From Chloroflexota bacterium (lineage in GTDB: Bacteria > Chloroflexota > Dehalococcoidia > JACVQG01 > JAHKAY01), in assembly GCA_018825785.1 (NCBI GenBank), contig JAHKAY010000006.1, forward strand, positions 42,332 to 106,331: a DNA stretch of 64,000 nt. The letters run 5' to 3'. The stretch's first letter is position 1. Each line of letters opens with the position of its first letter. Below the pieces are notes generated by a model that saw nothing but the letters and a program-made list of their open reading frames with translations, searched no databases and was not told the origin of the DNA. The translations under genes were made by a program, and so were the position numbers. This document shows positions 37,997-54,548 of this stretch, in pieces.

Positions 37997-40147
37997 ATGG
38001 CAAAAGGGAGAAAGGAACGCTCTTTGAATATATTAGGAGGAAGGTCGGCACTTCACCGGGGTGCCCTCTTCCCTTTGTGGGTCTTTCTGGCATTTTTTGT
38101 CTTTATCACGGTGCTTTATAGAAGCACCCTCTTTGATACGCCAAGGTCCGACCACGTTGAGATATTCGCCATCTTCCAAGACCTCACTTTTCCTCAAGAT
38201 ATTGCCCAGATAGCCTTTATGGAGTTTTTCGGCCACCCCAGATTCCAGCCCCTGGCCTGGCTCTTCCACTTCTTTCAGATAAAGGCCTTTGGTATGAATT
38301 TCATTTGTTACCACCTGGTCATCATTGGCCTGCATGCCCTCAATGGCACGCTTCTCTTGGGTTTGCTTTACGCCCTGTCTCGAAAGCTCCTCTTTTCCTT
38401 CTTTACTGCCCTTGTGTTCATCTCCCTATTTACTCATCTTCCCCTGATTGCCTGGCCGATAGCCTCCTACTCCCTCCTCAGTGTCACCTTGAGCCTTTCC
38501 GCTCTGCTCAGTCTGCTCAAGTTCTATCAGAGTTCCAACAGGGCTTTCCTATATGTTTCCTATTCGTTCGCCTTTGTGGCATTGTTTCTATACGAGCTGA
38601 ATTTGATAGTCCCTGCATTCATCTTCCTCTTTGCTGTGGGACTCGGTTGGGCAGCCGCTAGTAAGAAGCGCCTGATTTTGCAGAACTTATGTCTGGTAGC
38701 AATGGTCTATTTCGTTTATGGCGGGCTGTATTTGTGGCTCGTGCCTAGATATGCGGGGCTGCCGGAGCATGTCCTGAGTGGGCAGAGCGCCTGGCTCGCC
38801 CTGGCCGCAGTGCCCATCGAGTTTTTCAACACGGTGTTCGGCCACAACGTTTTTGCCACATCAAGGGTGGTAATTGATGAACTGTCCTTCTATGTGCCAT
38901 TTACAGTGAAGTCTTTCTCAATGAACACCATGGAGCCGGGCCTGGTCAAGCTCAACCTTCTGGTATATCTGGTCCTGTTGACCCTGGCTATCGCGTTGCG
39001 CAGACCGGAAAGGGGCCGGGGCTTGTGGTTATTCCTGCTGGCCCTCTGGGCCTTTGGCTACACTGCTATGATATTTCTCGGTCGGGGGGTGGCCTATGTT
39101 CTAAGTCAAGCGAGGCATGCTTACTTTCCGAGTATGCTGCTCCTCTTCATTGGCGCTCATTTCTATGAGCGCTATTTCTCACAGGGGTGGGCTCTGGCCA
39201 GGAGAGACGGCTCTTACTTCCTGGGCAAGTATGGTGGAGTGGTGGTTTTGATGGCTGGGGTCTTTTTCATCAATGTTAATGTAGCCAAAATATCCTGGAC
39301 TCTGCATGAGTACATGGGATACCGTTCCTATCCCAACACCATTTACTACACAGCTAGAGACTGGCTATCCCAGCCTGAGAACAGGGACAATAGCCTGTTA
39401 ATTTCGGTTCCAACTTATCCGCCCGAGGAGAAGCTGGCTTGGGGTGCGGATATACTGCCGGACCTATTCCTCTCAGACCCCCGCATCACCAAGAGTTTTC
39501 AGCAAGCTACTCATATTTTGGAATGGGGCGAGGGCCAGGCCTCGCCTTCAATCACGGAGCTCAGCCGTTACCCATCAGGGAATGCCAGTGATGACTTCAG
39601 CATTACGTTTGGCATCATGCCGCACCCACAAATCACCGAGGATTATCTGGAGGTGCTTGGTGCTTCGGCTGAGCCTGGCGTGGAACGATTTGGCAAGCAA
39701 TGGTGGCTACGGCTCTACTTCGACCAGTCGAGGAACCTCCCCGGGGACATAGCCGGCAGGGCCAGGGTGGTCCTGGGCTACTCCCAGGGCAGCTACGGGC
39801 ACATCATTGACGGGCGGGTTTTCAGCAGTCAACCGATAACCATAGGGCGGAGCCGAATGACCCACATTGTATTGGTGAAAGATGCTGGAACCTTCGGGGT
39901 GATTGTTAATGGGGAGCTGCTGGAAAAGGCTCAAGACATCACGGATGAGGACCTACAGAATATTGAACTTCCCCTGGGAAAGCTTTATCGGATGGGTTAC
40001 CGCAAGCCGTACTACTATGCCCACACTTTCATTGAGTTTGGAAGGAGCCGCTTTTCAATCCAGGATAGAGAGAAAGGCTATATCTTCAAAGAAATTCGCT
40101 TTAATCCTAAAGGATTTCAGGAATATCACATGTCTTTAGACTTCTAG
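37997..40147 (+). CDS. large polytopic membrane protein (716 aa) with a C-terminal extracytoplasmic ConA/LamG-like domain; possible GT-C-type glycosyltransferase
   Basis: ORF track entry. About 11-13 hydrophobic helices occupy the first ~430 aa. A soluble ~280-aa tail follows, containing ...RMTHIVLVKDAGTFGVIVNGELL..., a LamG-like strand pattern. G+C is about 48-50% by hand count. Confidence 0.5.
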   Translation: MAKGRKERSLNILGGRSALHRGALFPLWVFLAFFVFITVLYRSTLFDTPRSDHVEIFAIFQDLTFPQDIAQIAFMEFFGHPRFQPLAWLFHFFQIKAFGMNFICYHLVIIGLHALNGTLLLGLLYALSRKLLFSFFTALVFISLFTHLPLIAWPIASYSLLSVTLSLSALLSLLKFYQSSNRAFLYVSYSFAFVALFLYELNLIVPAFIFLFAVGLGWAAASKKRLILQNLCLVAMVYFVYGGLYLWLVPRYAGLPEHVLSGQSAWLALAAVPIEFFNTVFGHNVFATSRVVIDELSFYVPFTVKSFSMNTMEPGLVKLNLLVYLVLLTLAIALRRPERGRGLWLFLLALWAFGYTAMIFLGRGVAYVLSQARHAYFPSMLLLFIGAHFYERYFSQGWALARRDGSYFLGKYGGVVVLMAGVFFINVNVAKISWTLHEYMGYRSYPNTIYYTARDWLSQPENRDNSLLISVPTYPPEEKLAWGADILPDLFLSDPRITKSFQQATHILEWGEGQASPSITELSRYPSGNASDDFSITFGIMPHPQITEDYLEVLGASAEPGVERFGKQWWLRLYFDQSRNLPGDIAGRARVVLGYSQGSYGHIIDGRVFSSQPITIGRSRMTHIVLVKDAGTFGVIVNGELLEKAQDITDEDLQNIELPLGKLYRMGYRKPYYYAHTFIEFGRSRFSIQDREKGYIFKEIRFNPKGFQEYHMSLDF

Positions 40148-40152
40148 GCGAT

Positions 40153-43100
40153 GTGGGCTGGAAAATGGAGAAGATGAAAAGGCTATCAAGATTACGAGAA
40201 GAAATGTTGGGAGGGTTGCCCAAGCATCTTCTGTTCCTGGCGCTGGTGGCATTCCGGGTCTTTGGGCTTTTGCAGCACGAAATGTGGCGGACTGAGGCAC
40301 AGCTACCCCTGATGGTGAGAGATAGTCAGTCATTCGGCCAACTGCTGCACTGGCAATCATACGGAAGAGAACACATCCTCTGGCCCAGCATGCTATATGG
40401 TATGAAAATGCTGGGCCTGGACGCGGTGGTCGCAGGGCAGTGGCTACATCTAGGTCTCTCCATCATCCTCTTGGGCGTCATCTTTTATGGTATTCCACGC
40501 CTGCCCCTTATTATCAGGGCATCAGTGGGCTCTTCATTCTTCCTGATGTACGAATACAGCGCCATAACCAGAGTATATGGAGTGACAGCTTTACTGCTGG
40601 CGATATTTGTGATGCTGGAACTGCGCATCCGAAGAGGCATTCTGTGGAAAGCATTGACGCTCTTTTTCATGTCTCTTTCCAGCAATGTCGGTTTGGTACT
40701 TGCTATCGCCCTCGCTGTCTACCTGTTTGCCAAGCGTTCGGAGGAGCAGTGGCATACACGGGCTATGGGGGCCGGCATTGTCGCCTTAGGCATAGGGCTC
40801 AGTATTGCCACAGCGCTGCCTCCTGCAGACCTCAGCGAAGCGCCATGGCTTGTGGCCTATCGGGCTGATGCCTCTCGATACTGGGGTATACCGCATCTCC
40901 TCCCAACGACCGCCAGAATGTTTCTTGATGGCTTCCTCTATATTCCAATAATGACTTCACCACACTGGTATGAACCAACTTCCTGGTCCGAGCCTCAATC
41001 GCTCTTGTCCGGTGTGATATCAGAATACAAAGTTGCCACCTATCTCATCGGGTTAGCGGTTATCGCGTTGGCGGTACGGTTTCTATGGCACCTGTTTCGC
41101 ATAAGCAAGCCTATTGCACTGGGTGTTGCCACCCTCTGGGGAGGCAACCTGCTTGCCTGGTCAGTGATGCACCCCGGCTACACCCGGCATTTTGGCATTC
41201 TACTCCTGGGCACCCTTGGGCTATTTGCTCTAGCTGCAGACATGAGGAAAGGTTTCTCCGTGAAAGGGATGACCATCATTGTCGTGGTCATTCTGGCTAT
41301 CCAGAGCGCGTCTGGATTCTGGGCTGTTTATGCTGAGGTTGGAGACTCTTTCTCCCAATCCAAGAATCTGGCCCAATGGTGGCAGGCCAATTATCCTGAA
41401 GAAACGCCCTATGTTTTTCCCGACCATGTGGGTGCAACACTCAGCCTGTATACGGGGGGCTACGCCTATTCCCTGGCATCAGAGAGGGAGGAAGCAGTCT
41501 CCTTCGTTCGTGAGAGCGAAGAATTCGCACAGACATTTTCTCCAGCCTTAATCAGCAACCTGGACTTAAGAGGAGATAGCCCCTTTCTCATTACCAACTT
41601 CCCGTATCATGCCCTCCTGGATGGAGGTAAAACCATCGTGGAGCCGGTCCGCGCTTTCCAGTCCGCAGTAGCTTTCAATGAGTCCTTCTGGGTTCACCGG
41701 GTCCGCCACGGAAGCGAAAGCGAGCTATGGACTTTCAAGTTTTTGCCATTTGAAGGCCAATTCTGGACGGTAGAGACCTCTCAACATAATTGGCAACAAA
41801 ATGTTATAGAGCAGCCTGAGCCGAGGTTTGATAATGAAACTGGTTCTGCAATCGAGATAAAGATAAAGTTCTTAGAGGCACCGAACACTGACCCCAATGC
41901 CCTGGTCTTTCAGCTCCTGGACGGAAGAAGGCCGTTAAAGGTGTCTTTCTTTGGAGACGGATTTAGAATTCAATATGACGTTCTGAGAACCAGGTATGAA
42001 ATAGACACGACGGACGATTTTCATGTTTACCGTTTCACCTTAAGGAGAAATACGGTAGAGGCATATGTGGATGGCAAGAAGGTTGGTTCCAGCTATCTTA
42101 GTGCTGAAACAGAAGATAAGAGGGTCCTCTTAGGGAATGTCGGCACTAGGGGCGAGAATATAGCAGCACAAATCAAGTATGTGGCCTACTCTGCCAGTGG
42201 GGCACTGCCACCAGAAGGGGAACAGGAGCCAGAGGAAGCCGAAATATGGACCATGTTTACTGATATGCAGATGTCACCCGATGCTCCCCCTGCCGCTTGG
42301 GCAGGGAATGGGACATTTTCTGTGAAGTCGGTTGTAGATGGTGTGCTAACAGTAGCTACCAGGGGTACTGATTTAGGACACTTCTCACAACTTGTGCCAG
42401 AATTCGATAACGCCGTGGGCAGCACGGCTGAAGTAAGGCTTAAGCTTCTGGATGGCCCCAAAACCGATTCTGACGGGGCTATGCTGTCGATTTCCGATGG
42501 GTTGAGGGAAGCAAAAATAGCCTTCTTTACCGACCACATTAATATTCTTGACCAGAGTGAGTTCAAGAGATTCAGCTGGATGGATACTACCGATGATTTT
42601 CACACCTACCGGATAGCCATCATTGGGGATAGTCTGAGAGTGTACGTGGATGGCGCGGAGGTGGCTGCGGCGACCCTGCGCCAGCAGGCTACCGGGAGGC
42701 AAGTCCTGTTCGGCGATTTCAGCACCAGCGCAGGTGAGAATATGGGTGTCAGGGTGGACTACCTGGCCTACTCCGTTAACGGGGCTAAGGCCCCGGATGG
42801 GTCGTCCATCAAGACTGTGGAAGGTGGTGAAGAAGAGCAGGACATTCCATGGACATCGGCCAAAGGCGGCTTCGTAATCAGGACCGTGGGCAAGGAAAAT
42901 GAACCGGCCGGAACCGGCTATCCCATCAAGGAATTTGACAACTCCCTGGGTTCTACCCTCGAGGTGAAGATGAGGATTCTGGAGGCACCCGCTTCAGGAT
43001 TCAATGGGGGAGCACTTTCTCTCATAGATGGCCAGAGAGAGGGGAAACTTAGCTTCTTCAACGATAGAGTTGAGATACGCGACGTGAACGATTTTAGACA

Positions 43101-43335
43101 AGCATATGAGTTAGACACTACTGATGGGTTCCACGTCTACAGGCTAACCATCGTTGAAGATACCCTGAAGGCGTATGTTGACGGGATGGAGGTGGCGATG
43201 GTGACACTGGCCAACAGTAACAAGGAGAAGAAGATACTGTTTGGGGATTTCAGCCCCGAAGAGGGCGAGAATATATATGCCCAGGTTGAGTACCTGGCCT
43301 ATTATGTGGGTGGGGCCGTGTCCCCCAGACCATGA
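40153..43335 (+). CDS. very large polytopic membrane protein (1060 aa) with three tandem ConA/LamG-like ectodomain repeats
   Basis: ORF track entry. The N-terminal ~400 aa are multi-TM. They are followed by a linker domain and three repeats of 130-190 aa sharing the blocks FDN..GS, DG.R..K..FF.D, DTTD.FH.YR, YVDG..V, LFGD.S...GEN and Y(L/V)AY. Confidence 0.55.
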   Translation: MGWKMEKMKRLSRLREEMLGGLPKHLLFLALVAFRVFGLLQHEMWRTEAQLPLMVRDSQSFGQLLHWQSYGREHILWPSMLYGMKMLGLDAVVAGQWLHLGLSIILLGVIFYGIPRLPLIIRASVGSSFFLMYEYSAITRVYGVTALLLAIFVMLELRIRRGILWKALTLFFMSLSSNVGLVLAIALAVYLFAKRSEEQWHTRAMGAGIVALGIGLSIATALPPADLSEAPWLVAYRADASRYWGIPHLLPTTARMFLDGFLYIPIMTSPHWYEPTSWSEPQSLLSGVISEYKVATYLIGLAVIALAVRFLWHLFRISKPIALGVATLWGGNLLAWSVMHPGYTRHFGILLLGTLGLFALAADMRKGFSVKGMTIIVVVILAIQSASGFWAVYAEVGDSFSQSKNLAQWWQANYPEETPYVFPDHVGATLSLYTGGYAYSLASEREEAVSFVRESEEFAQTFSPALISNLDLRGDSPFLITNFPYHALLDGGKTIVEPVRAFQSAVAFNESFWVHRVRHGSESELWTFKFLPFEGQFWTVETSQHNWQQNVIEQPEPRFDNETGSAIEIKIKFLEAPNTDPNALVFQLLDGRRPLKVSFFGDGFRIQYDVLRTRYEIDTTDDFHVYRFTLRRNTVEAYVDGKKVGSSYLSAETEDKRVLLGNVGTRGENIAAQIKYVAYSASGALPPEGEQEPEEAEIWTMFTDMQMSPDAPPAAWAGNGTFSVKSVVDGVLTVATRGTDLGHFSQLVPEFDNAVGSTAEVRLKLLDGPKTDSDGAMLSISDGLREAKIAFFTDHINILDQSEFKRFSWMDTTDDFHTYRIAIIGDSLRVYVDGAEVAAATLRQQATGRQVLFGDFSTSAGENMGVRVDYLAYSVNGAKAPDGSSIKTVEGGEEEQDIPWTSAKGGFVIRTVGKENEPAGTGYPIKEFDNSLGSTLEVKMRILEAPASGFNGGALSLIDGQREGKLSFFNDRVEIRDVNDFRQAYELDTTDGFHVYRLTIVEDTLKAYVDGMEVAMVTLANSNKEKKILFGDFSPEEGENIYAQVEYLAYYVGGAVSPRP
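41824..43314 (+). repeat. three tandem coding repeats (LamG-like modules) inside the 1060-aa ORF
   Basis: The repeats begin at about 41824 (RFDNETGS), 42397 (EFDNAVGS) and 42928 (EFDNSLGS). They end at about 42200, 42783 and 43314 (YVAYSASG, YLAYSVNG, YLAYYVGG). Confidence 0.7.
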
Positions 43336-43347
43336 TTGGAGGGACTC

Positions 43348-44829
43348 ATGCATGACGTGCTGCTAATCAATCCGCCTTCAGCTTTCTCAACCTATAAGGG
43401 GACAAAGGTTGGCGTCTATGTGCAACTCTATCCGGTATTGTCCCTGGCTTGCCTGGCGGCCATGCTGAGGGAGAAGGGCTCTGGCGTTTCCATACTTGAC
43501 CTGGGGATAGAGCAGTACCCTTGGCAGGTGCTGGAGGCAAAGCTGAGCGAGTCAAAGTCGCGCATTATAGGGGTAACCTGTACAACGCCGCTGTATCCTG
43601 AGGTAGTCCAGCTAAGCCGGGCTATCAGGCAGAGGGTTGGCAATGGTACGGTGCTTGTCGTTGGCGGGCCACATCCTTCAGCCCTGCCGGCGGAAACGCT
43701 GCTGGAGTCTGACTTTGACATCGCCGTTGTAGGCGAGGGCGATGAGACAATGGTTGAAATAGCTGAGGGGAAGAAGCTGTCCGATATCAAGGGTATCTTC
43801 TACAAGGATGGGGAAGGGATATCATCCACCGCGCCTCGGGAGCGCATCAAGGACCTGAATGCACTCCCCTTCCCGGCCCTTGACCTCTTTGATGCGAAGC
43901 GATACCGCTGTTCCAGGCTGGTTTCCAGGAAAACCCCAATGAGTGACCTGATGACCAGCCGGGGATGCGTTTTCAACTGTAGCTTCTGTGGCAAGAAGGT
44001 CTTTGGACGGAGGTTTATATCTAAGTCGCCGGAGAAAGTGATTGAGGAAATCAAGCACACGCTGAGTCTAGGTTTTAAGGAGATTCGCGTTGTGGATGAT
44101 ATGTTCACCACCAACATGGACAGGGCCAAGACAATCTGTGAAATGATACTGAGGGAGAGGTTGCGTTTCCCGTGGAACCTGGCAGCGGGACTCAGGGTGG
44201 AATGCATCGATGAGGAGTTCCTCCGTTTGGCCAAACGCGCTGGACTGTATCAGGTCTCTATCGGCTTTGAGAGTGGCGACCAGGATTGCCTGGATTCAAT
44301 TGCCAAGGGCATTACCCTTGAGCAGAGCATGAGGGCCATGCATATGGTAAAGAAAGTCGGCCTGGAGAGCGTGGGATTCTTTATGTTGGGCCTGCCGGCC
44401 GAGAGTGAGGAGAGCATGAAGAAGACCATTGACTTCGCCGTGAAACTGATGCCGGATTTCGCCAAGGTTACCATTCTCATGCCCCTGCCAGATGCCAGGC
44501 TATTCTGGGAGTGGGAGAGGCAGGGGCTTATCAAGAGCCGGAACTGGAGGGAGTATAAGCTCCACGGGGGCGGCGCCGTTTACCAGCATCCAACGCTGGA
44601 CCGTGAAAAGCTGGAGCAGTATTATGATCTCTTCTACCGGAGATTCTATCTTAACCCGAAATACCTTTTCAGAAGAGCCGGAATCGCCATTTCCAGAGGT
44701 ACCTTTTTCCTTGAGCTGTACTACGGCGCCAAGACCTTTCTCCCCAGCGTGTTCGGACCACATCCCAAGCCCGCCCGCCCTTCTGCAGAGGAGCAACATG
44801 CCCGACTAACCGAGAAGGAATACCTCTAA
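43348..44829 (+). CDS. B12-binding-domain radical SAM enzyme (class B), second copy in the locus
   Basis: MHDVLLINPPS...LACLAAMLREKGSGVSILDL is the B12-binding-like N-terminus. It is followed by TSRGCVFNCSFC (CxxxCxxC). The track start TTG 43336 abuts the upstream stop. ATG 43348, after GGAGGG, is preferred. Confidence 0.8.
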   Translation: MHDVLLINPPSAFSTYKGTKVGVYVQLYPVLSLACLAAMLREKGSGVSILDLGIEQYPWQVLEAKLSESKSRIIGVTCTTPLYPEVVQLSRAIRQRVGNGTVLVVGGPHPSALPAETLLESDFDIAVVGEGDETMVEIAEGKKLSDIKGIFYKDGEGISSTAPRERIKDLNALPFPALDLFDAKRYRCSRLVSRKTPMSDLMTSRGCVFNCSFCGKKVFGRRFISKSPEKVIEEIKHTLSLGFKEIRVVDDMFTTNMDRAKTICEMILRERLRFPWNLAAGLRVECIDEEFLRLAKRAGLYQVSIGFESGDQDCLDSIAKGITLEQSMRAMHMVKKVGLESVGFFMLGLPAESEESMKKTIDFAVKLMPDFAKVTILMPLPDARLFWEWERQGLIKSRNWREYKLHGGGAVYQHPTLDREKLEQYYDLFYRRFYLNPKYLFRRAGIAISRGTFFLELYYGAKTFLPSVFGPHPKPARPSAEEQHARLTEKEYL

Positions 44830-44867
44830 TAACATGGCTGGCTCGAAATTGACCGGCCACAGAAAGG

Positions 44868-46055
44868 ATGTACCTTGAGATGCCTAGAATCAAGTTAGTC
44901 GCTCTGACGGTACTCTTATTGGCAATGACAATGATGATGAGTGGCTGTCTTCAACAGGTGGCTCGGACTACAGCTGAAGGTCCCACTGTAGCCCCGGAGC
45001 CAGCCCCAAGCCAGACTCCAACTCTGTCTCCTTCTTCTCAACTCCCTCGGTCCCCAGCACCCCCCACGGTGTTGGGCAAACAGGGGGCAGACCTGAGCGG
45101 ATACAGCAAAGTGGAGCTGAACGATGACCAGATTGAGGTGAGCAGTGTATTCCAGGGCTACGGAGGAGGGAATCTCATCAGGGATACTGGCAGTTTCTGG
45201 CACATAGGAGTCCCGAAGGAAAGCGACCAGGCATGGGCAATCATTGACTTGAGGAGTGGGATGCAGTTGGTTGTGATTGCGGTCAGGCCCCGCTCGGACC
45301 ACCTATCACACCTGTGGAAAGTAGACAACGCTACGCTTGAGGGGGGCAATGACAGCAAGGCATGGGACACTTTGGCCAAGCTCAGACTAGACCACGATGC
45401 GCTAAATGGAAGAGACTGGATATCTTTTATGCTTTCAGAGGGTGTCGGTCCATACCGGTACTACCGTCTTCTTATCAATGACCCTGATTTCATCTCCATG
45501 GCCGGGCTTGCATTGTACACTGAAGATGCCATCGCAATCGTCCCAGGGCATGAGCCTGCAGATGCTGAGACAGGGCTCCCAACCGCGTTGGGCAAGCAAG
45601 GAGGGGACCTCAGCGGATACCGCAAGGTGGAGTTGCTCCCTGGCCAGGTTGAGGTGAGCAGCAGCATGGAGAACTATGGTAAAGGCAACCTCTTGTCAGA
45701 TGCTGCTGGTGCTACTTTCTGGCACGTTGGATTGCCGAAAGAAACTGACGAAGCCTGGGTGTTGGTTGACTTAAGGAGCGAGGGCACTCTGGCTGCCTTA
45801 GGCATCAGGCCACGCACAGACTATCTGACACATCTGTGGAAAGGCGGTTCTGCCGTCTTACAAGGCAGTAACAATAGAGAGGAGTGGGTCCCAGCGGTCG
45901 AACTAGTGCTGAACCAAGGGGAGCTCAACGCCGTTGACTGGATAATATTTGTACTTCCCAATGATATAGGCCCATACCGGTACTATCGTCTTCTTATCAC
46001 TGACCCTGATTTTATTTCCATGGGCGGGTTTGAACTGTTCCGCAAAGACCCCTGA
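44868..46055 (+). CDS. putative lipoprotein with two tandem discoidin (F5/8 type C)-like domains
   Basis: 395 aa. The signal peptide has the lipobox LAMTMMMSGC. A Pro/Ser-rich linker follows, then two ~155-aa repeats (LGKQG.DLSGY.KVEL...FWH.G.PKE.D.AW...DLRS...PR.D.L.HLWK...GPYRYYRLLI.DPDFISM). The domain family is assigned by eye. Confidence 0.55.
   Translation: MYLEMPRIKLVALTVLLLAMTMMMSGCLQQVARTTAEGPTVAPEPAPSQTPTLSPSSQLPRSPAPPTVLGKQGADLSGYSKVELNDDQIEVSSVFQGYGGGNLIRDTGSFWHIGVPKESDQAWAIIDLRSGMQLVVIAVRPRSDHLSHLWKVDNATLEGGNDSKAWDTLAKLRLDHDALNGRDWISFMLSEGVGPYRYYRLLINDPDFISMAGLALYTEDAIAIVPGHEPADAETGLPTALGKQGGDLSGYRKVELLPGQVEVSSSMENYGKGNLLSDAAGATFWHVGLPKETDEAWVLVDLRSEGTLAALGIRPRTDYLTHLWKGGSAVLQGSNNREEWVPAVELVLNQGELNAVDWIIFVLPNDIGPYRYYRLLITDPDFISMGGFELFRKDP
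45069..46052 (+). repeat. internal tandem duplication (two ~470-nt coding repeats)
   Basis: Repeat 1 spans about 45069-45529 and repeat 2 about 45585-46052. For example, 45450-45506 and 45972-46028 are identical at about 50 of 57 nt by eye. Confidence 0.7.
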
Positions 46056-47848: not shown

Positions 47849-47919
47849 CCCTTGACCGGGAGGCCACCTTCCCTCCTGGACGCGTCCCAGGCGAGCGGTA
47901 TATAATCAAACGAAGGCTT

Positions 47920-47978
47920 GGGCGGTTAGCTCAGCGGTTAGAGCGCCTGCTTCACACGCAGGAGGCGGTGGCTCAAAG
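47920..47978 (+). pseudogene. tRNA-Val(CAC) fragment: 5' acceptor arm to mid T-loop; the 3' T-stem and acceptor arm are missing
   Basis: The sequence is GGGCGGT-TA-GCTC-AGCGGTTA-GAGC-G-CCTGC-TTCACAC-GCAGG-AGGC-GGTGG-CTCAAA... The D arm and anticodon arm (anticodon CAC) fold canonically. No CCACC or ACCGCCC complement follows. TATAAT lies at 47901-47906 upstream. G+C drops immediately after. Confidence 0.7.
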
Positions 47979-48117
47979 CTAGCGTCTACCGATTTAGCTA
48001 CGAAATTGGGGCGACAAAGCAAGAGGTCTTTTGTTTTACTCCTATTAGTCTTGATGGTGGCCCTTCCGGTCTTCATCGATCGCCTCCTATGCATTATTTT
48101 GAACTTCTGCGAGAGAC

Positions 48118-48324
48118 TCACCGTTTTGTCTCCTTGGTCAATTCCTCAATTCTTAAGAGCGCCAGCGGGGACGGCTTGAAGGTGCCTTTCTCCCAACGCC
48201 TCACTGTGATGACACTAACCCCCAACCTACGAGCCAATCCATCTTGGCTTAAACCTAGTTTGCGCCTCAATTCTCTTATCGATTCCCTATTCATGATATC
48301 ATATGATAGCTCATCTGCTACCAT
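48118..48324 (-). CDS. XRE-family helix-turn-helix transcriptional regulator
   Basis: 68 aa. IRELRRKLGLSQDGLARRLGVSVITVRRWEKG is a classic HTH_3 pattern. The gene lies in low-GC DNA. Confidence 0.8.
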   Translation of the reverse strand: MVADELSYDIMNRESIRELRRKLGLSQDGLARRLGVSVITVRRWEKGTFKPSPLALLRIEELTKETKR

Positions 48325-48400
48325 TAGTCAAGATGAGAACGTCGCCCCAATCTGAACCACAACGCCCAGCACCGACGCAGGCGTCCGGCCCAAGACATGG

Positions 48401-48759
48401 ATGCCGATTGCGGCCGGTATCCTCAGCATTGTTTGTGGTGCTACTGACTTACTTGTCGGAATACTATTTGCCGCCATTACCAACTACGAATGGCATGGCC
48501 TCCAACTTGTGTCAGCCATACCTGTTATTATCCTTGGGTAGTCGCCACAGCCGGTGGCATCTTTGCCATCAACAGGAGAAACGGGGGACTAGCCTTTGGC
48601 GGCGCCATTTGTGCTGCCATTTCCCCCGCATTTCTACTGGGTATCGCCGCAGTCATCCTTCTGGCACTATCAGAGAAAGAGTTCGCCAACCCTGAGGAAG
48701 ATGGAAAGCTGCCTTCAGGGCCGCTGCACCCCTGGTTTGAAGATGAACTCGGGCTCTAA
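48401..48759 (+). pseudogene. small (~120 aa) four-helix membrane protein gene split by a single frameshift
   Basis: In frame 2, ATG 48401 gives MPIAAGILSIVCGATDLLVGILFAAITNYEWHGLQLVSAIPVIILG and then TAG at 48539-48541. The hydrophobic continuation VVATAGGIFAINRRNGGLAFGGAICAAISPAFLLGIAAVILLAL... is in frame 1 (track ORF 48490-48759). The shift falls at a GGG run near 48536. Confidence 0.45.
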
Positions 48760-48839
48760 GGTCTGGGGCTCTCCTTCGGCATCGGCCAGGCTGGAGGTGG
48801 AGGTGCTCAAACGGGGGGGGAGAGGCTGAGGGAGCTGGT

Positions 48840-48858
48840 GGCTGTACGACGTACAGCC
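48840..48858. terminator. perfect 8-bp hairpin between convergent genes (possible terminator; no U-run)
   Basis: GGCTGTAC-gac-GTACAGCC directly abuts the stop (48859-48861) of the minus-strand molybdoenzyme gene. Confidence 0.3.
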
Positions 48859-51111
48859 CTATGCCTTTACCCATTTCTCAACCTGGACCAAAGCAGTGTT
48901 GGTGCAGAAGGCGCCACCCGGTGATTTGGCATCCCTGGTCAGCACATTGGCGCAGCCACCGTGGTCTATGCCTTTCCCATCGGGGTCATGCCAGGCACCC
49001 TCGGGGACATTCACTACACCGGGCATTATCCTCTGGGTAACCTCAGCGGGGAGAACTGTTTGTCCTCTATCATTGTAGACTCGAACCAGGTCGCCATTAC
49101 TGATGCCCCTGGCACGGGCATCGTCGGTGTTTATCTGCATGCGTTGAGGAATCAGCTCTCTGAGCCAAGGTAGGTTGTCAAACTGACTGTGGGCCCGCGC
49201 ACGGTGATGGGTGGTCAGCAGTTGCAGTGGATACTTCTTCGCCAGAGGGTCGTTCCGGCCCTCCCAGGCCTCAATATATTTGGGGATGGGAGGAAGCTGA
49301 GGGTCATTCCAGTCTGCCAGCTCTTGAGAACATATTTCGATCTTCCCCGAAGGAGTGGGGAAGGGACGATTCTCCGGGTCTTCTATTTGCTCCTTAAAGG
49401 CGACATAGGGCTTATCAGTTGGAAACTTGTACAAGGCCTTCTTCCTAAGTGTCTCGTAATCAGAACCTTCTTTATCTTTGGCAAAGACCTCTCTATACCC
49501 CTCCACTATGCCTTTTAGCCATTCCTCTTCTGTCTTCTCGTTGTAGTCATTGATACCCATTGCTTTGGCTATCCCCTCTGCTATCTCCAGGTGGGACTTG
49601 GATTCATGTAAAGGTTCTGCTGATTTGTTTACGAGGCCATACCAGGGGGTGGCGCCGCCACTGGTGAAGTCATTTCTTTCAAAGTAGGTATTAACCGGCA
49701 GCAAGATGTCGGCGAACTTGGCTGTGGCTGTCATGAACTGCTCCTGAACAGCGATAAACTCCACCGCCTTAAAAGCTTCAATAGTCTTGTTGGCATTGAG
49801 AATCTGGTTTACATAGTTGGTATTTGCCAGATAGAGGAGTCTGTAATCGGCAGGGTAGCCGCCGGCCTTGCCCTTCAATACTGCGTCTGCTATCTGGCCG
49901 ACATTTATCTTTGCACTGCTATTGGTGCTGGAGCCGCGCGCCTTGACCGTATTCCTGCGAGCAGGCCATCCCTCCTCAACCGGATTTCTGGGACTGCCCA
50001 TCCGCCCCTTTGTGCGGGCCAGGAAAGCCATCTCCCCACCCCAGTGCTCACCTCCCCATGACCTGCCTGCGGAACTTCCCCCGCTGATTCCTATATTGCC
50101 CGTCATGGCCGACAGGGCGATGGCAGCACGGTGGTATTGCTCTCCATAGGCAGTGCGCCCGGGGGCTATGCCAGCAATCAACGCTGCCGGCTTGGTGGTG
50201 GCGTATAGCCGGGCCAGCCTTGCGGTGGTATCTGCTTTCACGCCGGTGATGGACTCCGCCCAGGCAGGTGTCTTTGGTATGCTGTCTTCAATGCCCAAAA
50301 CATAGTCCCTGAATTTCTCTAAACCTACGGTATATTTATTGATAAATGTCTGGTCATGGAGGTTTTCCGTGATAATCACATAGGCCATTGCAATAAGCAT
50401 GGCTGCATCAGTACAGGGGTAAATGGGTATCCATTCATCGGCGAAGGTGGCTGTGGAATCTGTATACCTTGGGTCTATGGAAATGATTCTGGCACCGGCC
50501 TCCTTGGCCCGGGCCAAATAGTATGGCGTGTTACAGCGGTGGATTGTAACTGCGGGGTCCCACCCCCACATTATTATCAACCGGGAGTTGAGAAGGTCGT
50601 CTCTGGTGCTGTTGGTCATAGCCGTTCCGTAGGTAGCACATTCGGCAAAGACGCCACCCTCATAGGACATGAAACCCCAAAGTGGAGTATAACCTCCTGC
50701 CATGCAGAGCAATCTATGCATCGGCGTCATAGTGTGGAGGACATGGATATCGGCCAGTGAACAGAAGAAAATGATGGATGCTGGGCCGTAGGTATCTCTG
50801 ACCCGTATCAGTTCCTTAGCCACAGTAGAGAAGGCTTCGTCCCAGGAGATGCGCTCAAACTTCCCCTCCCCTCTGCTCCCGGCCCTCTTCATGGGGTACT
50901 TGAGGCGGTCTGGCGCATACAGACGCTGCCGGAAAGAGCGACATCTAAGGCAGGCCCGGAATTGAGGCTCTTCGCCGTCATCAGTCTCGATCCTGGTGAC
51001 CACGCCGTCTTTGACGTGGACTTTGAGGAGGCAGGCTCCACCACAATGGCTATTACATGCAGTATAGATGATGCTATCATTTTGCTCTGTTTGTCTGCTA
51101 TTCTCGCTCAT
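48859..51111 (-). CDS. molybdopterin oxidoreductase, DmsA-like catalytic subunit (DMSO reductase family) without a Tat signal
   Basis: 750 aa. The N-terminus YTACNSHCGGACLLKVHVKDGVVTRIETDD...FRACLRCRSFRQRLYAPDRLKYPMKRAGSRGEGKFERISWDEAF closely parallels E. coli DmsA as I remember it (CTVNCGSRCPLRMHV...ACLRGRSMRRRVYNPDRLKYPMKR). IIDPRYTD and WIPI.P.TDAA blocks are also present. There is no twin-arginine leader. Confidence 0.8.
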   Translation of the reverse strand: MSENSRQTEQNDSIIYTACNSHCGGACLLKVHVKDGVVTRIETDDGEEPQFRACLRCRSFRQRLYAPDRLKYPMKRAGSRGEGKFERISWDEAFSTVAKELIRVRDTYGPASIIFFCSLADIHVLHTMTPMHRLLCMAGGYTPLWGFMSYEGGVFAECATYGTAMTNSTRDDLLNSRLIIMWGWDPAVTIHRCNTPYYLARAKEAGARIISIDPRYTDSTATFADEWIPIYPCTDAAMLIAMAYVIITENLHDQTFINKYTVGLEKFRDYVLGIEDSIPKTPAWAESITGVKADTTARLARLYATTKPAALIAGIAPGRTAYGEQYHRAAIALSAMTGNIGISGGSSAGRSWGGEHWGGEMAFLARTKGRMGSPRNPVEEGWPARRNTVKARGSSTNSSAKINVGQIADAVLKGKAGGYPADYRLLYLANTNYVNQILNANKTIEAFKAVEFIAVQEQFMTATAKFADILLPVNTYFERNDFTSGGATPWYGLVNKSAEPLHESKSHLEIAEGIAKAMGINDYNEKTEEEWLKGIVEGYREVFAKDKEGSDYETLRKKALYKFPTDKPYVAFKEQIEDPENRPFPTPSGKIEICSQELADWNDPQLPPIPKYIEAWEGRNDPLAKKYPLQLLTTHHRARAHSQFDNLPWLRELIPQRMQINTDDARARGISNGDLVRVYNDRGQTVLPAEVTQRIMPGVVNVPEGAWHDPDGKGIDHGGCANVLTRDAKSPGGAFCTNTALVQVEKWVKA

Positions 51112-53141
51112 TTCTTCCTCTCCTCAAGTGTCTTCTTCGGCAGATGTTTTGGTCTGAATATGATTGACGGCATTGTGGTTGATGAATACGCGAAACCGAC
51201 GGCCTCTTGAGTATCTCCGTATTTTGCCCTCAGTTCTTCCATCGCGCCAGTGTCCAGGGCCCGCATAATGCAGGCATCTACGCAGATAGGATTCTTGTTC
51301 TGTTCCAGCCTGTCCAGACAGAAGTCACATTTCTGCATCTTGGCCCCGTTTTCGGCTCCAAACTGCGGGGCATGATAAGGGCATGCTCTGAGGCAGAGCC
51401 TGCCGGCACAGTTCATGCATCTCTTGGCTTCGGCAATGGCCTTCTCCTCAGCGTACCCTCGCCCTATCTCACTGAAACTGCGGACCCTCTCCTGCGCTGT
51501 AAGCTTAGGCATATCTTGCCGCTTTTCCTTGAGCAGGTCAGCCGGTATCTCAACCTTGATATCAGCGGCTGTGAGGGGGACATCTATGCGGCTCTCTTTC
51601 AGAACCTCTCCCTTCAGATAGCGGTCGATATAGTGTGCAGCCCTTTGGCCAGCAGCAACAGCATCAATAATCCAGGCCGTTCCTGTGACTGCATCTCCCC
51701 CGGCGAAGATGCCAGGATGGCTGGTTTCCAGAGTCTCCGGGTCTATGGCGATGGTGCCCTTCCTTGTTACCTTGATGTTTGTGCCTGCCAAGAGTGAGGC
51801 CAGGTCTGGAGATTGCCCGATGGCGAATATGATTGTGTCCACTGACAAGACATGCTCGGACCCTTCAATGGCCTTGATGTGCAGCCTCCCATCCTTGTCA
51901 AACTCCATCCGCTGCAACCTAAGGCACTCGACGCCAGTGGCATTACTGTCCTGGCAGACAATCCTGTTGAAGGTAAGCGAGGGGTAGATGACGATTCCCT
52001 CCTCTTCAGCTTCAGCAATGTCGGAGCGCATGGCCGGCATCTTTTCTCGGGACTCGAGGCATGCCACTGCCACCTCTTGTGCCCCCAGGCGAAGAGCCAC
52101 GCGAGCACAATCAATGGCTACATTGCCACCTCCAAGCACTAAAACCCTTTTCCCCAGCTTTGTCTTGTTGCCCAGGTTTACGTGGCGCAGGAATGCGCTA
52201 CCTACCAGGACATTGCTAGCTTCAGCGCCAGGAATGGGTAGCTTATGCCCTTTGTGGGCCCCCACTGCAATGAAGATGGCTTCGTAGCCCTGGCGAGAAA
52301 GGTCGTCCAAAGTCATGTCTTTACCTATAGCCGTGCCGGTCTTGATTTGTATCCCCAAACCTTCAAGATACCTGATGTCACGGTTTAGCACCTGTCTCGG
52401 CAGGCGATAGCGAGGAATACCGACCGCGAGCATGCCCCCTATAACAGGGAGTGCCTCAAAGATTGTAGCCTTGTAGCCCTTTCTTATGAGGTCGTAGGCC
52501 GCGGAAAGCCCTGCTGGCCCTGAGCCAATAATGGCCACACTCTGGCCTTCTGGTCTGGGAAGAGGAGGCGTCTCCTCGTCAGCTACGGCGTCATAAGCAA
52601 ATCGTTTGAGGTCTCTGATGGCCAGGGACTCATCGGCTTCGCTTCTCTTGCACGCCGTTTCACACGGCCGGGAGCACACCCTGCCCAAAACGCCAACCAA
52701 AGGCAGTTTCTCCCTCATCAAATCTAAAGCTTCCTTAAACCTGCCCTTGCTAATCAAGGCGATATAGCCCGGTACATCCACATGGGCGGGGCAGGTTACC
52801 TCACACGAAGATACATCTATTTCGCCATTTCCGTTGCTGGCAGTTATGCCGCAGCGCGCGCTTTCCCGACACCTTCCCCTGTCCACTACGACTACGCCGT
52901 CAGCTTCTCTCTTGGTTATCGCTTGCGCGGGACAGACTACGGCGCAGAGAGGGTCCTTGCAATGGCAGCATGTGGTGGAAAGGTAGGCCAAGAAGGGCTG
53001 AGGGAATTTGCCTCCCTCAAACGGAATTACTCTCCGCCAATGAGCTGGCCCGGCAGGTATATCATGCCAGTCTTTACATGCTACGCAGCAGGTAAAGCAC
53101 CCGATGCACCTGGTCTGGTCAAAGTAGAAACCCTTTTGCAT
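51108..53141 (-). CDS. fusion protein: DmsB-type four-cluster ferredoxin interrupted by a GltD-like FAD/NAD(P)H oxidoreductase module
   Basis: 677 aa in three parts. Residues 1 to ~95 carry CIGCFTCCVAC and CCHCKDPLCAVVCP (DmsB groups I-II). Residues ~110-560 carry CPAHVDVPGYI...GRVCSRPCETAC, VAIIGSGPAGLSAAYDL, LGGGNVAIDCA and GIFAGGD (GltD-like). Residues ~590-677 carry CMNCAGRLCLRACPYHAP and CDFCLDRLEQNKNPICVDACIMRAL (DmsB groups III-IV). It overlaps the Mo-subunit gene by 4 nt. Confidence 0.75.
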   Translation of the reverse strand: MQKGFYFDQTRCIGCFTCCVACKDWHDIPAGPAHWRRVIPFEGGKFPQPFLAYLSTTCCHCKDPLCAVVCPAQAITKREADGVVVVDRGRCRESARCGITASNGNGEIDVSSCEVTCPAHVDVPGYIALISKGRFKEALDLMREKLPLVGVLGRVCSRPCETACKRSEADESLAIRDLKRFAYDAVADEETPPLPRPEGQSVAIIGSGPAGLSAAYDLIRKGYKATIFEALPVIGGMLAVGIPRYRLPRQVLNRDIRYLEGLGIQIKTGTAIGKDMTLDDLSRQGYEAIFIAVGAHKGHKLPIPGAEASNVLVGSAFLRHVNLGNKTKLGKRVLVLGGGNVAIDCARVALRLGAQEVAVACLESREKMPAMRSDIAEAEEEGIVIYPSLTFNRIVCQDSNATGVECLRLQRMEFDKDGRLHIKAIEGSEHVLSVDTIIFAIGQSPDLASLLAGTNIKVTRKGTIAIDPETLETSHPGIFAGGDAVTGTAWIIDAVAAGQRAAHYIDRYLKGEVLKESRIDVPLTAADIKVEIPADLLKEKRQDMPKLTAQERVRSFSEIGRGYAEEKAIAEAKRCMNCAGRLCLRACPYHAPQFGAENGAKMQKCDFCLDRLEQNKNPICVDACIMRALDTGAMEELRAKYGDTQEAVGFAYSSTTMPSIIFRPKHLPKKTLEERKK

Positions 53142-53287
53142 AGTTGCTCCTTAACTCCCTTGCTCCAGGCTAGTTTCTGAGCCTTGATTGTCTCTGGCAC
53201 CTCAGACTCTTCCCCAAAAACTGGCACTCCTGCAGGCCGCCGCAACAGGCCGCTCAGCCCTGGCGAGCCTCCCAAGGCAGGTGCAGT

Positions 53288-54304
53288 CTAGATATATCTG
53301 CCCACTGAATTGGCAATTGACTTGAGTTCTTCCATCAACCTGGCAAAATCTGATGGTGTGAGAGACTGAAGGCCATCCACCAGGGCTTCCTTCGGGTTGG
53401 GGTGAACCTCTATAAGAAGCCCATCGGCGCCGGCAGCCACAGCGGCCTTGGCTATCGCTGGAACCAGCGAGTAGTGGCCAGCGGCGTGGCTGGGGTCAAC
53501 AATGACCGGCAAGTGGCTGTATCTCTTGACTACCGGTATAGAAGAAATATCCAGAGAAAAGCGAGTGCTGTCCTCAAATGTTCTGATTCCCCTCTCACAG
53601 AGAATAACCCTGTTGTTTCCCCCTGCCAGTATGTAGTCGGCCGCTGTCAGCCACTCGGTAACAGTGCACGAGAATCCACGCTTCAACACTACAGGGTACC
53701 TGCTCCTGCCAACAGCAGATAGCAGGGCAAAGTTCTGCATATTTCGAGAACCAATTTGGAGAATGTCAGCATACTTAGATACCATGCTGACATCGTGGGG
53801 GTCTACCAGTTCGGTAATCACTGGCAAACCCCACTTGTCGCTGGTCCGCGCCAGCAATTCCAGGCCTGCTTTCTCTAAGCCCTGAAAGCTGAAAGGAGAG
53901 GTACGCGGTTTGAAGGCACCACCGCGCAAAATACAGGCCCCCGACTCTTTCACTATCTTGGCTGCCTTCATGAGTTGCTCTTCATTCTCGACAGCACAAG
54001 GCCCTGCCATTACTACAACGCGCCTGCCCCCAATCTGAATACCGTCTACGGAAACCAGGCTGTCCTCCGCCTTGAATTCCCTGGAGGCAAGCTTGTAGGG
54101 CTTCATAATCCGGGTTACTTTCTCCACCCCAGGGAGCACGGCAAGAATATCTGTAGACAATTGCCCTGTACTGCTTCCCAATACGGCGACCACCGTTTTG
54201 TTAGTGCCAACGTTCAGCTGGACGTCTAGTCCCAGCGACTTGGCCTTCTGCACTACACCATCTATCTCTTCTGGGGTGGCCCCCATTCTCATTTCTACAA
54301 TCAT
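53288..54304 (-). CDS. aroF: 3-deoxy-7-phosphoheptulonate (DAHP) synthase, type I-beta with an N-terminal ferredoxin-like regulatory domain
   Basis: 338 aa. MIVEMRMGATPEEIDGVVQKAKSLGLDV... is the regulatory domain. It is followed by VVVMAGPCAVENEEQLMKAAKIVKESGACILRGGAFKPRTSPFSFQGL. The length and architecture match the Thermotoga-type enzyme as I remember it. Confidence 0.85.
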   Translation of the reverse strand: MIVEMRMGATPEEIDGVVQKAKSLGLDVQLNVGTNKTVVAVLGSSTGQLSTDILAVLPGVEKVTRIMKPYKLASREFKAEDSLVSVDGIQIGGRRVVVMAGPCAVENEEQLMKAAKIVKESGACILRGGAFKPRTSPFSFQGLEKAGLELLARTSDKWGLPVITELVDPHDVSMVSKYADILQIGSRNMQNFALLSAVGRSRYPVVLKRGFSCTVTEWLTAADYILAGGNNRVILCERGIRTFEDSTRFSLDISSIPVVKRYSHLPVIVDPSHAAGHYSLVPAIAKAAVAAGADGLLIEVHPNPKEALVDGLQSLTPSDFARLMEELKSIANSVGRYI

Positions 54305-54548
54305 GGCGTCCTACTGTACCCCCATACGAGTCGAATTTCCCGTTTCAGTTTCTCACCAAGCTGTCCACATCCACACGTCAGCATTAGCGATAATATTACA
54401 CCCAGGTTCTAGCCGTCAAGCTAATCCCTGGTCTCACAAGGAGGAAAAGCCACGTCAAAAAATCTCTGCAACTGTTTCATCGTTGTTCAGTAGCCCAGTC
54501 CCACGTTCTTGGGGACTCCACCCTCTTCCAGGGGCCGGGGCAGGCCCT

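Follow-up and report, generated by a model that had tools for sequence, protein, structure and literature searches.

DmsABC and YnfEFGH are membrane-bound reductases of S-oxides, N-oxides and selenate that leave the cytoplasm by way of twin-arginine translocation (Tat). Cytoplasmic enzymes carrying molybdenum or tungsten on a pair of pyranopterin guanine dinucleotides (Mo/W-bisPGD) can couple to pyridine nucleotides or work as anchorless soluble alpha-beta enzymes. NAD(P)H-linked or soluble members of this group are Geobacter SfrAB, the NAD-dependent formate dehydrogenases FdsABG, the assimilatory nitrate reductases NasBC, the NADPH-dependent biotin sulfoxide reductase BisC of Rhodobacter and pyrogallol transhydroxylase; BisC has neither the iron-sulfur cluster FS0 nor any Fe-S subunit. 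We know of none among these that pairs a DmsA-type catalytic subunit with a DmsB-type ferredoxin bearing a GltD-type flavoprotein within it. Two adjacent genes of that composition are described here. They lie in a window of 64,000 nucleotides from a Chloroflexota bacterium (GenBank assembly GCA_018825785.1, contig JAHKAY010000006.1, positions 42,332 to 106,331), and all coordinates given below are positions in this window. From the sequence evidence, the pair probably forms a soluble cytoplasmic two-subunit oxidoreductase in which electrons pass from NAD(P)H through flavin adenine dinucleotide (FAD) and an Fe-S chain to Mo-bisPGD.

The pair resembles DmsABC and YnfEFGH in its FS0 cluster, Ser Mo ligand and Mo-bisPGD domains (39% identity to DmsA), and in a B subunit with all 16 cysteines of the four-cluster ferredoxin (41% identity to DmsB in both halves). 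It differs from them in lacking a Tat leader, a DmsC/YnfH anchor and a nearby DmsD chaperone, in a cassette of about 483 residues in the B subunit, where cysteine group III reads C-x5-C...C-x3-CP, and in that both proteins score below the curated cut-offs. StnC (from StnABC of Sporomusa ovata) and NfnA (from NfnABC enzymes of the Bfu type) contain the same type of GltD cassette (36-42% identity), lodged between two portions of an Fe-S host domain and with an 'EAxRCxxC' segment behind it, and in them the cassette is the NADPH entry port to the cluster chain. Their host is NuoG-like, with an inactive FdhF-like domain and HydBC-like bifurcating subunits, whereas the host here is a DmsB protein serving an active-looking DmsA-type Mo subunit, with no HydBC-like genes nearby and with C-L-E in place of YRR. 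AegA, YgfT and YgfK of E. coli share the GltD-type FAD/NAD(P)H module with two [4Fe-4S] clusters and fused extra Fe-S domains, and YgfK shares the RCxxC segment after GltD. In AegA and YgfT (33-34% identity over the core) a complete ferredoxin is followed by GltD and by nothing after it, and no DmsA-type subunit is encoded beside them in E. coli K-12.

Each part is known, as is the principle that Mo/W enzymes can be linked to pyridine nucleotides; the combination and the splice within a DmsB motif appear to be undescribed. Neither a DmsB-GltD hybrid nor a DmsAB that depends on NAD(P)H was found described in the searchable open-access literature, and no curated NCBIfam model reaches its cut-off for either protein. 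An earlier annotation of this DNA made without database searches (the sequence-only reading) could match the split-ferredoxin topology to no described enzyme. This appears to hold for the combination with a DmsB host, but not for the embedding itself, as StnC and NfnA embed the same cassette type.

The gene pair and its products

The gene of the catalytic (Mo) subunit (48859-51111, minus strand) encodes a leaderless DmsA/YnfE-like Mo/W-bisPGD protein of 750 residues. The gene of the electron-input subunit, hereafter the partner (51108-53141, minus strand), encodes 677 residues comprising a DmsB-type four-cluster ferredoxin interrupted by a GltD-type flavoprotein cassette. The partner stop codon and the Mo-subunit start codon share an ATGA overlap (51108-51111, minus strand), an arrangement of translational coupling; both overlapping genes, as first read, were reproduced from the open reading frames (ORFs). 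Shine-Dalgarno sequences (GGAGAGG and AAGGAG) precede the two start codons. An in-frame stop lies four codons upstream of each ATG, which leaves no room for an earlier start in either gene, nor for a Tat leader. Two independent assemblies contain the identical partner protein. The architecture, with every ligand cysteine conserved, is retained in more than 100 full-length homologs (53-95% identity) and is therefore not due to chance. Public databases name homologs of the pair generically ('molybdopterin-dependent oxidoreductase' or 'FAD-dependent oxidoreductase'), and at JGI the catalytic subunits are automatically called 'anaerobic dimethyl sulfoxide reductase subunit A'.

The catalytic subunit contains the Pfam domains PF04879, PF00384 and PF01568 (Fe4S4, molybdopterin and dinucleotide-binding). 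Its best NCBIfam model was TIGR02166 (dmsA_ynfE), aligned from profile position 34 with 669.8 bits against a curated cut-off of 777.7 bits. The exception models for DmsA, YnfE and YnfF gave 490-503 bits against cut-offs of 1600-1675, and the BisC family models were lower, at 425 bits. Residues 8-746 are 39% identical to residues 52-813 of E. coli DmsA (annotated K-12 genome), the alignment opening just past the 45-residue Tat leader of that protein. The subunit is accordingly DmsA-like from FS0 onward and has no twin-arginine leader, as had been proposed. None of its 120 nearest relatives has a Tat motif, the same pattern detecting the E. coli DmsA leader as a control. These relatives are of 716-765 residues, except for one fragment of 677 residues and one fusion of 944; the latter (L010, 402-3236, P0188) joins a leaderless DmsA-like subunit and an unsplit DmsB-like ferredoxin in a single polypeptide.

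The FS0 [4Fe-4S] motif, C19-x3-C23-x3-C27...C54 (50950-51057, minus strand), was aligned to C63/C67/C71/C104 of DmsA. Among 118 relatives C23, C27 and C54 are invariant, and the C19 position is Cys in 92 and His in 25; a His as first ligand of these leaderless DmsA-like proteins is as in the NarG-type FS0 motif. The predicted Mo ligand is Ser149 (codon 50665-50667, minus strand), invariant in 118 of 118 relatives. By alignment only, it matches Ser147 of DorA, the Mo ligand of Rhodobacter dimethyl sulfoxide (DMSO) reductase, and Ser205 of the E. coli DmsA precursor.

Two stretches of the partner are each 41% identical to E. coli DmsB: residues 2-104 match DmsB 4-112, and residues 569-665 match DmsB 93-186. 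The N-terminal ferredoxin part (residues 1-99; 52845-53141, minus strand) holds cysteine group I (12, 15, 18, 22), group II (58, 61, 66, 70) and C91-x5-C97, the probable first half of group III. The C-terminal part (residues 583-677; 51108-51395, minus strand) holds C583-x3-C587-P-YHAPQF, the probable second half of group III, and group IV (605, 608, 620, 624), and its ligand cysteines are invariant among the homologs. Between them lies the GltD/NfnB-type cassette, at about residues 100-582 (about 483 residues; 51396-52844, minus strand; boundaries inferred to a few residues). It was recognized by PRK12771 (NCBIfam, 472 bits over residues 111-592) and by Fer4_20 and Pyr_redox_2 (Pfam, 83 and 114 bits). 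The cassette contains the FAD site GSGPAG (52509-52526, minus strand), the NAD(P)H site GGGNVAIDCA (52104-52133, minus strand), the specificity motif C-L-E-S (residues 361-364; 52050-52061, minus strand) and an FAGGD motif, and a GltD-type lead-in helix is located at its end (51408-51509, minus strand). Its two predicted [4Fe-4S] sites, on the same strand, draw on C113, C117, C156, C160, C164, C575 and C578. Among the homologs, residues of the FAD motif (G206, G208, P209) and the NAD(P)H motif (G337-G339), together with F479/G482, are invariant.

Against the DmsB model TIGR02951 the native partner matched in two stretches with 160.8 bits (cut-off 214.1). When residues 91-574 were removed in silico, the remaining 193 residues covered positions 1-161 of 161 in one stretch with 180.6 bits, still below the cut-off, and were colinear with solved four-cluster ferredoxins. 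Conservation was scored in 118 full-length homologs at 53-95% identity. The 23 predicted ligand cysteines (12, 15, 18, 22; 58, 61, 66, 70; 91, 97, 113, 117; 156, 160, 164; 575, 578, 583, 587; 605, 608, 620, 624) are conserved at 98-100%. Of the six non-ligand cysteines, 19, 59 and 396 vary freely and 345, 361 and 406 are conserved at 94-97%. By motif, 23 is the number expected for four DmsB clusters and two GltD-module clusters, one of the latter having a non-cysteine fourth ligand in known members.

An AlphaFold2 model of the partner was computed from 113 sequences (mean predicted local distance difference test 89.5, predicted template modelling score 0.89). In the model the protein is predicted as one compact body, and confidence is low only in the C-terminal tail, at residues 103-107 and in a linker around 511-530. 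A Foldseek search with this model, which cannot bridge the 480-residue insert, returned matches to the cassette only; the best query TM-score was 0.64, and no solved structure therefore spans the whole architecture.

The insertion point and the inserted cassette

The DmsB halves flanking a GltD block correspond to the layout given in the sequence-only reading. The insert had been placed there between groups II and III, but group III itself seems to be split. In 45 of 45 scored unsplit B subunits of the same clade, group III has the form C-x5-C-x2/3-C-x3-CP (one has x4 for x5), for example VVVVDREKC-LGKDE-C-GL-C-LEA-CP-YEAPQFG. In the partner, VVVVDRGRC91-RESAR-C97-GI precedes the insert and C583-LRA-C587-P-YHAPQFG follows it. 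With a profile of the unsplit homologs, positions 1-100 aligned to partner residues 1-100 and positions 88-184 to residues 572-667. Splicing residues 1-100 to 583-677 gave 306.8 bits against this profile, and splicing 1-90 to 575-677 gave 299.9 bits.

A segment much like the canonical N-terminal lead-in of GltD modules occupies partner residues 545-578 (ERVRSFSEIGRGYAEEKAIAEAKRC575MNC578). These residues coincide with a second, weak Fer4_20 match and with the post-GltD segment of NfnA, and the region aligns to AegA 168-249 (partner 522-594) and YgfT 174-226 (partner 539-590). The run C575-x2-C578-x4-C583-x3-C587P is probably not a plain DmsB group III, C575 and C578 belonging rather to the cassette. 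From the motifs, the likeliest arrangement is that a GltD cassette, circularly permuted, interrupts group III after its second cysteine and before its third. On the most economical reading FS4 would be ligated by C91, C97, C583 and C70, with C587 going to FS3, and the distal cluster of the cassette would be ligated by C113, C164, C575 and C578. Along the chain, only 5 residues (from C578 to C583) and 16 (from C97 to C113) would then separate the ligands of FS4 from those of the distal cluster. Alternatively, C91/C97 may ligate the cassette and C575/C578 may ligate FS4; cassette and ferredoxin ligands would still be a few residues from ferredoxin elements at each junction. Close spacing of the cassette and ferredoxin clusters is expected under either assignment.

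The nearest solved relatives of the cassette, by sequence and by fold, were 9bov_A (Caldicellulosiruptor NfnABC; 42% identity, E 5e-113 by sequence and 6e-55 by Foldseek), 9n5u_A (Thermococcus NfnA) and 8oh5_C (Sporomusa StnC; 36% identity, Foldseek E 1e-51). The NfnB-type structures 4ylf_B and 5jca_L gave target TM-scores of 0.78-0.80 by Foldseek. The GltD domain of StnC (residues 102-565) is embedded in a NuoG-like domain, after the N-terminal 2Fe-2S part of the latter and before its later clusters; NADPH is oxidized there at a non-bifurcating FAD, and electrons pass singly through two clusters (C7 and C6) into the host chain (PMC10482914). The 9bov structure is of the NADPH-oxidizing NfnABC (PMC11829005). 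A GltD cassette within an Fe-S protein consequently has structural precedent; the host and the downstream enzyme are new.

In the partner, C-L-E replaces the Y-R-R that follows the second Rossmann strand of 9bov, AegA, YgfT and YgfK. The YRR motif is typical of GltD-type members that use NADPH. Glu363 is at least 90% conserved, and C-[LV]-E was found in 26 of 27 split forms, including all Asgard copies. This substitution suggests NADH rather than NADPH as the donor. The NAD(P)H-linked flavoprotein module of the sequence-only reading is upheld by complete and conserved FAD and NAD(P)H motifs, with the amendment that the nucleotide may be NADH. The sole split B subunit of the 27 with an NADPH-type Y-R-R is at locus L013 (7216-9267), and nucleotide preference may differ within the family.

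The proposed electron path and competing explanations

By homology with characterized chains, NAD(P)H, probably NADH in most members, would give hydride to the FAD of the inserted cassette. Electrons would leave the FAD singly, through the proximal and then the distal [4Fe-4S] cluster of the cassette, and would enter the DmsB-type wire at FS4, the anchor-facing cluster of membrane-bound relatives. From there they would pass by FS3, FS2 and FS1 to FS0 of the DmsA-like subunit and on to the Ser149-ligated Mo-bisPGD, where an oxygen atom would be abstracted from the substrate. Group III is presumed here, from NarGHI, PsrABC and DmsB C102 variants, to ligate FS4, the cluster adjoining the quinol site of the anchor, and the cassette would for that reason sit at the normal electron-entry end of the wire. 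The splice in group III would tie FS4 to the distal cluster by two short tethers (C97 to C113 and C578 to C583), and the cassette would stand in for both the membrane anchor and the quinone pool. With the quinone pool bypassed, no proton gradient would be built through it, and the enzyme might serve as a non-respiratory electron sink or in repair or detoxification. Since the catalytic subunit is close to DmsA/YnfE and DorA/TorA, oxygen-atom abstraction is the most likely chemistry, as NAD(P)H-dependent reduction of an S-oxide or N-oxide (DMSO, trimethylamine N-oxide, methionine or biotin sulfoxide, or similar) or of an oxyanion. Confidence in any particular substrate is considerably below that in the mechanism at the level of architecture. 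The soluble cytoplasmic, NAD(P)H-wired Mo-bisPGD enzyme put forward in the earlier annotation fits all of the sequence evidence: leader and anchor are absent, and the cofactor motifs are conserved.

Several points weigh against this account. The active-site pocket differs from that of DorA (Tyr114 to Cys, Trp116 to Leu) and varies across the family, so that the substrate may not be an S- or N-oxide; it cannot be read from the sequence of the catalytic subunit. The assignment of C91/C97 as opposed to C575/C578 follows motif homology, with a gap of only 7 bits between the two splices. That group III ligates FS4, and that FS4 faces the anchor, is carried over from NarGHI, PsrABC and DmsB C102 variants, and a literature search on this point found nothing. 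The preference for NADH follows the usual Rossmann rule, a rule of thumb. Finally, genes of the beta-oxidation type beside the pairs could point to an organic substrate, although they may merely reflect regions rich in such genes.

The last point bears on the suggestion that the same architecture works as a dehydrogenase or hydroxylase, the Mo site oxidizing or hydroxylating an organic or inorganic substrate with water and electrons moving outward via the Fe-S chain and FAD to NAD(P)+; such an enzyme could feed a coenzyme A (CoA)-thioester or beta-oxidation-type pathway. Recurrent neighbors of both split and unsplit pairs (L021, L027-L030, L032, L035-L037 and others) are genes for crotonase, thiolase, 3-hydroxyacyl-CoA dehydrogenase, MaoC dehydratase, NMO-like proteins and CaiB-type CoA-transferase, and genes for short-chain dehydrogenase/reductase, aldo-keto reductase and glyoxalase adjoin in L003 and L004. 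The Ser-ligated branch also includes the cytoplasmic hydroxylating enzymes PgtL and RhL (PMC10100899), PgtL is detectable as a relative of the catalytic subunit (4v4c_A, E 3e-54), and the pocket residues are variable. We nevertheless consider this direction unlikely. PgtL is a far more distant relative of the subunit than DmsA/YnfE (669.8 bits) and DorA/TorA are, most hydroxylations would be poorly served by NAD(P)+ (about -320 mV) as acceptor, and the beta-oxidation neighbors are mostly Asgard synteny in genomes with many such genes, unconserved across phyla.

It is also improbable, in our estimation, that the cassette FAD bifurcates or confurcates as in NfnB, so that NAD(P)H and the Mo reaction would be coupled with a second carrier, for example ferredoxin. 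The closest solved relatives are the StnC and NfnA cassettes, and the FAD of StnC is reported to be non-bifurcating (PMC10482914). For Csac NfnABC, a composite flavobicluster is reported as the bifurcation site (PMC11829005). No NfnA-like or HydBC-like gene recurs near the pair in the flank survey, and NAD(P)H reduction of high-potential oxides needs no bifurcation. The proposal draws on the GltD/NfnB fold of the cassette, NfnB being bifurcating (4ylf_B, 5jca_L), and on the unsplit relatives of the same clade, which must use another soluble donor, possibly ferredoxin. Ordinary causes, that is, a misread AegA/YgfT-type protein, a Tat-exported DmsAB with a mis-called start, or a chimera or pseudogene, are left with a negligible probability. 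AegA and YgfT do join a ferredoxin to GltD and show weak N-terminal matches (E 4e-5 and 2e-6), but they have no ferredoxin half after the GltD core. Both align to that core only (for AegA, partner 92-515 to AegA 222-657, 33%), and the C-terminal 100 residues of the partner match DmsB 93-186. Colinearity was thereby ruled out, in keeping with the original distinction between the split topology and the trailing GltD of AegA/YgfT. The stops upstream of both starts rule out a normal exported DmsAB. The identical protein in two independent assemblies, with the more than 100 full-length homologs in which architecture and all ligands are kept, rules out an assembly chimera or pseudogene.

Distribution, gene neighborhood and meaning for the hosts

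Species-representative genomes (185,579) were scanned with a junction-specific probe (residues 1-135), and 79 loci were kept of at least 580 candidates; none of the 79 is from a cultured host. A complete split B subunit (664-717 residues) was present at 28 loci, and two more were cut by a contig end. The leaderless Mo subunit is directly adjacent in 26 of the 28, the other two being without upstream sequence. Hosts of the split loci are Dehalococcoidia, Desulfobacterales and other Deltaproteobacteria, Hydrogenedentota, Pseudomonadales and Asgard archaea. At least 12 Asgard metagenome-assembled genomes (MAGs) carry the split form (Promethearchaeota, Odin-, Hod- and Thorarchaeota); in several of them the contig is 170-470 kb long. 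In homologs on long contigs the Mo subunit is adjacent in either gene order and the neighbors are unrelated. The remaining loci have unsplit B subunits of 185-250 residues, also with leaderless Mo subunits. In a representative library of 1.84 billion proteins, about five full-length clusters at 50% identity match across the junction; on this sequence clustering the split B-subunit family is a tight one.

Neighbor-joining trees were constructed for the cassette, the ferredoxin and the Mo subunit. The cassettes of all split forms grouped together with 100% bootstrap, the tree having three E. coli outgroups only. In the ferredoxin tree, of 182 columns, a group of all split forms had 26% support and one of the beta clade with an unsplit Asgard clade had 60%. 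Split and unsplit forms were interleaved in this tree, and so were subunits with split and with plain partners in the Mo-subunit tree.

Other arrangements of related genes were seen in the kept loci. At L029, L033 and L037 (Promethearchaeia/Promethearchaeota) a split-type pair and an unsplit DmsAB-like pair lie within a few kb on opposite strands. At L008 (10001-14911 of the Deltaproteobacteria MAG chromosome CP070673.1) a leaderless DmsA-like gene has no B subunit immediately downstream. Three genes further on is a 652-residue Oxidored_FMN/Pyr_redox_2 protein, a 2,4-dienoyl-CoA-reductase-like Fe-S flavoprotein that could be an alternative NAD(P)H-linked partner.

No BLAST match to a DmsC-like protein was obtained in the 79 loci, and no polytopic ORF abuts the split pair in any of 26 pairs. 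Membrane ORFs near split pairs encode transporters or otherwise unrelated proteins: major facilitator superfamily, ATP-binding cassette, LivM-type, ATP synthase a, SpoIIM and ICMT proteins. The absence of a DmsC-like anchor and of a DmsD-like chaperone, first recorded for this stretch alone, extends to the neighborhood of the pair in both the window and the related loci. Clustering of 545 flanking ORFs revealed no accessory gene common across phyla, the beta-oxidation-type genes being the only ones to recur.

In the window the pair is flanked by a 3-deoxy-D-arabino-heptulosonate 7-phosphate (DAHP) synthase gene and a helix-turn-helix (HTH) gene. The block 47850-54400, which holds the pair and the DAHP synthase gene, has a third-position G+C content (GC3) of about 0.58-0.60 and lies between genes of GC3 0.79-0.85, which suggests that it was acquired horizontally. 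Its other features are the DAHP synthase with an FXD domain (53288-54304, minus strand), a 68-residue XRE/HTH_3 gene (48118-48324, minus strand), small hydrophobic, apparently frameshifted ORFs (48398-48759, plus strand) and a degenerate tRNA-Val(CAC)-like element (47920-47988, plus strand). The last scored 35 bits with Rfam RF00005 against a gathering score of 29, and ARAGORN called no tRNA in the window. The element has a short T-arm and acceptor-stem mismatches, and lies at the edge of the block near the XRE-type gene; it may be what is left of an integration site. L011 and L012, the nearest relatives, have only the two genes in common with the window, at 83% nucleotide identity. These observations fit a self-sufficient module of two genes, lacking anchor and chaperone, that moves horizontally. 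GC3 is also lower (0.57-0.67) in a second stretch, at 37997-46055. Its products are a 716-residue protein without a Pfam match, a GH16/LamG-like one of 1060 residues, a radical SAM enzyme of the B12-binding kind and a secreted protein containing F5/8 type C domains.

In published accounts of Dehalococcoidia, other Chloroflexota and Asgard archaea, DmsA-like genes are taken to encode reductases that serve respiration or use high-potential acceptors, with no word of a partner that binds NAD(P)H (PMC4959651, PMC11650866, PMC10100899). We offer tentatively, and with more doubt than confidence, a general rewiring in which a permuted GltD cassette in the anchor-facing cluster motif makes a quinol-linked enzyme into an NADH-driven cytoplasmic reductase. 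Such an enzyme would be a widespread fermentative electron sink for oxidized sulfur and nitrogen compounds, or for a substrate class still unknown, in Dehalococcoidia, Desulfobacterota and Asgard archaea. If this is true, many 'DMSO respiration' calls in sediment and Asgard reconstructions would be wrong. Architecturally, a modular flavoprotein cassette would be able to replace a membrane anchor at the normal electron-entry cluster, and biochemists would gain a compact system, encoded by two genes, in which NAD(P)H is predicted to drive oxygen-atom transfer. An enzyme that has neither leader nor anchor but carries its own NAD(P)H-oxidizing module would conserve no energy through the quinone pool. 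Its role would be redox-balancing, repair, detoxifying or catabolic, and the metabolic reconstruction of the host lineages would be altered accordingly.

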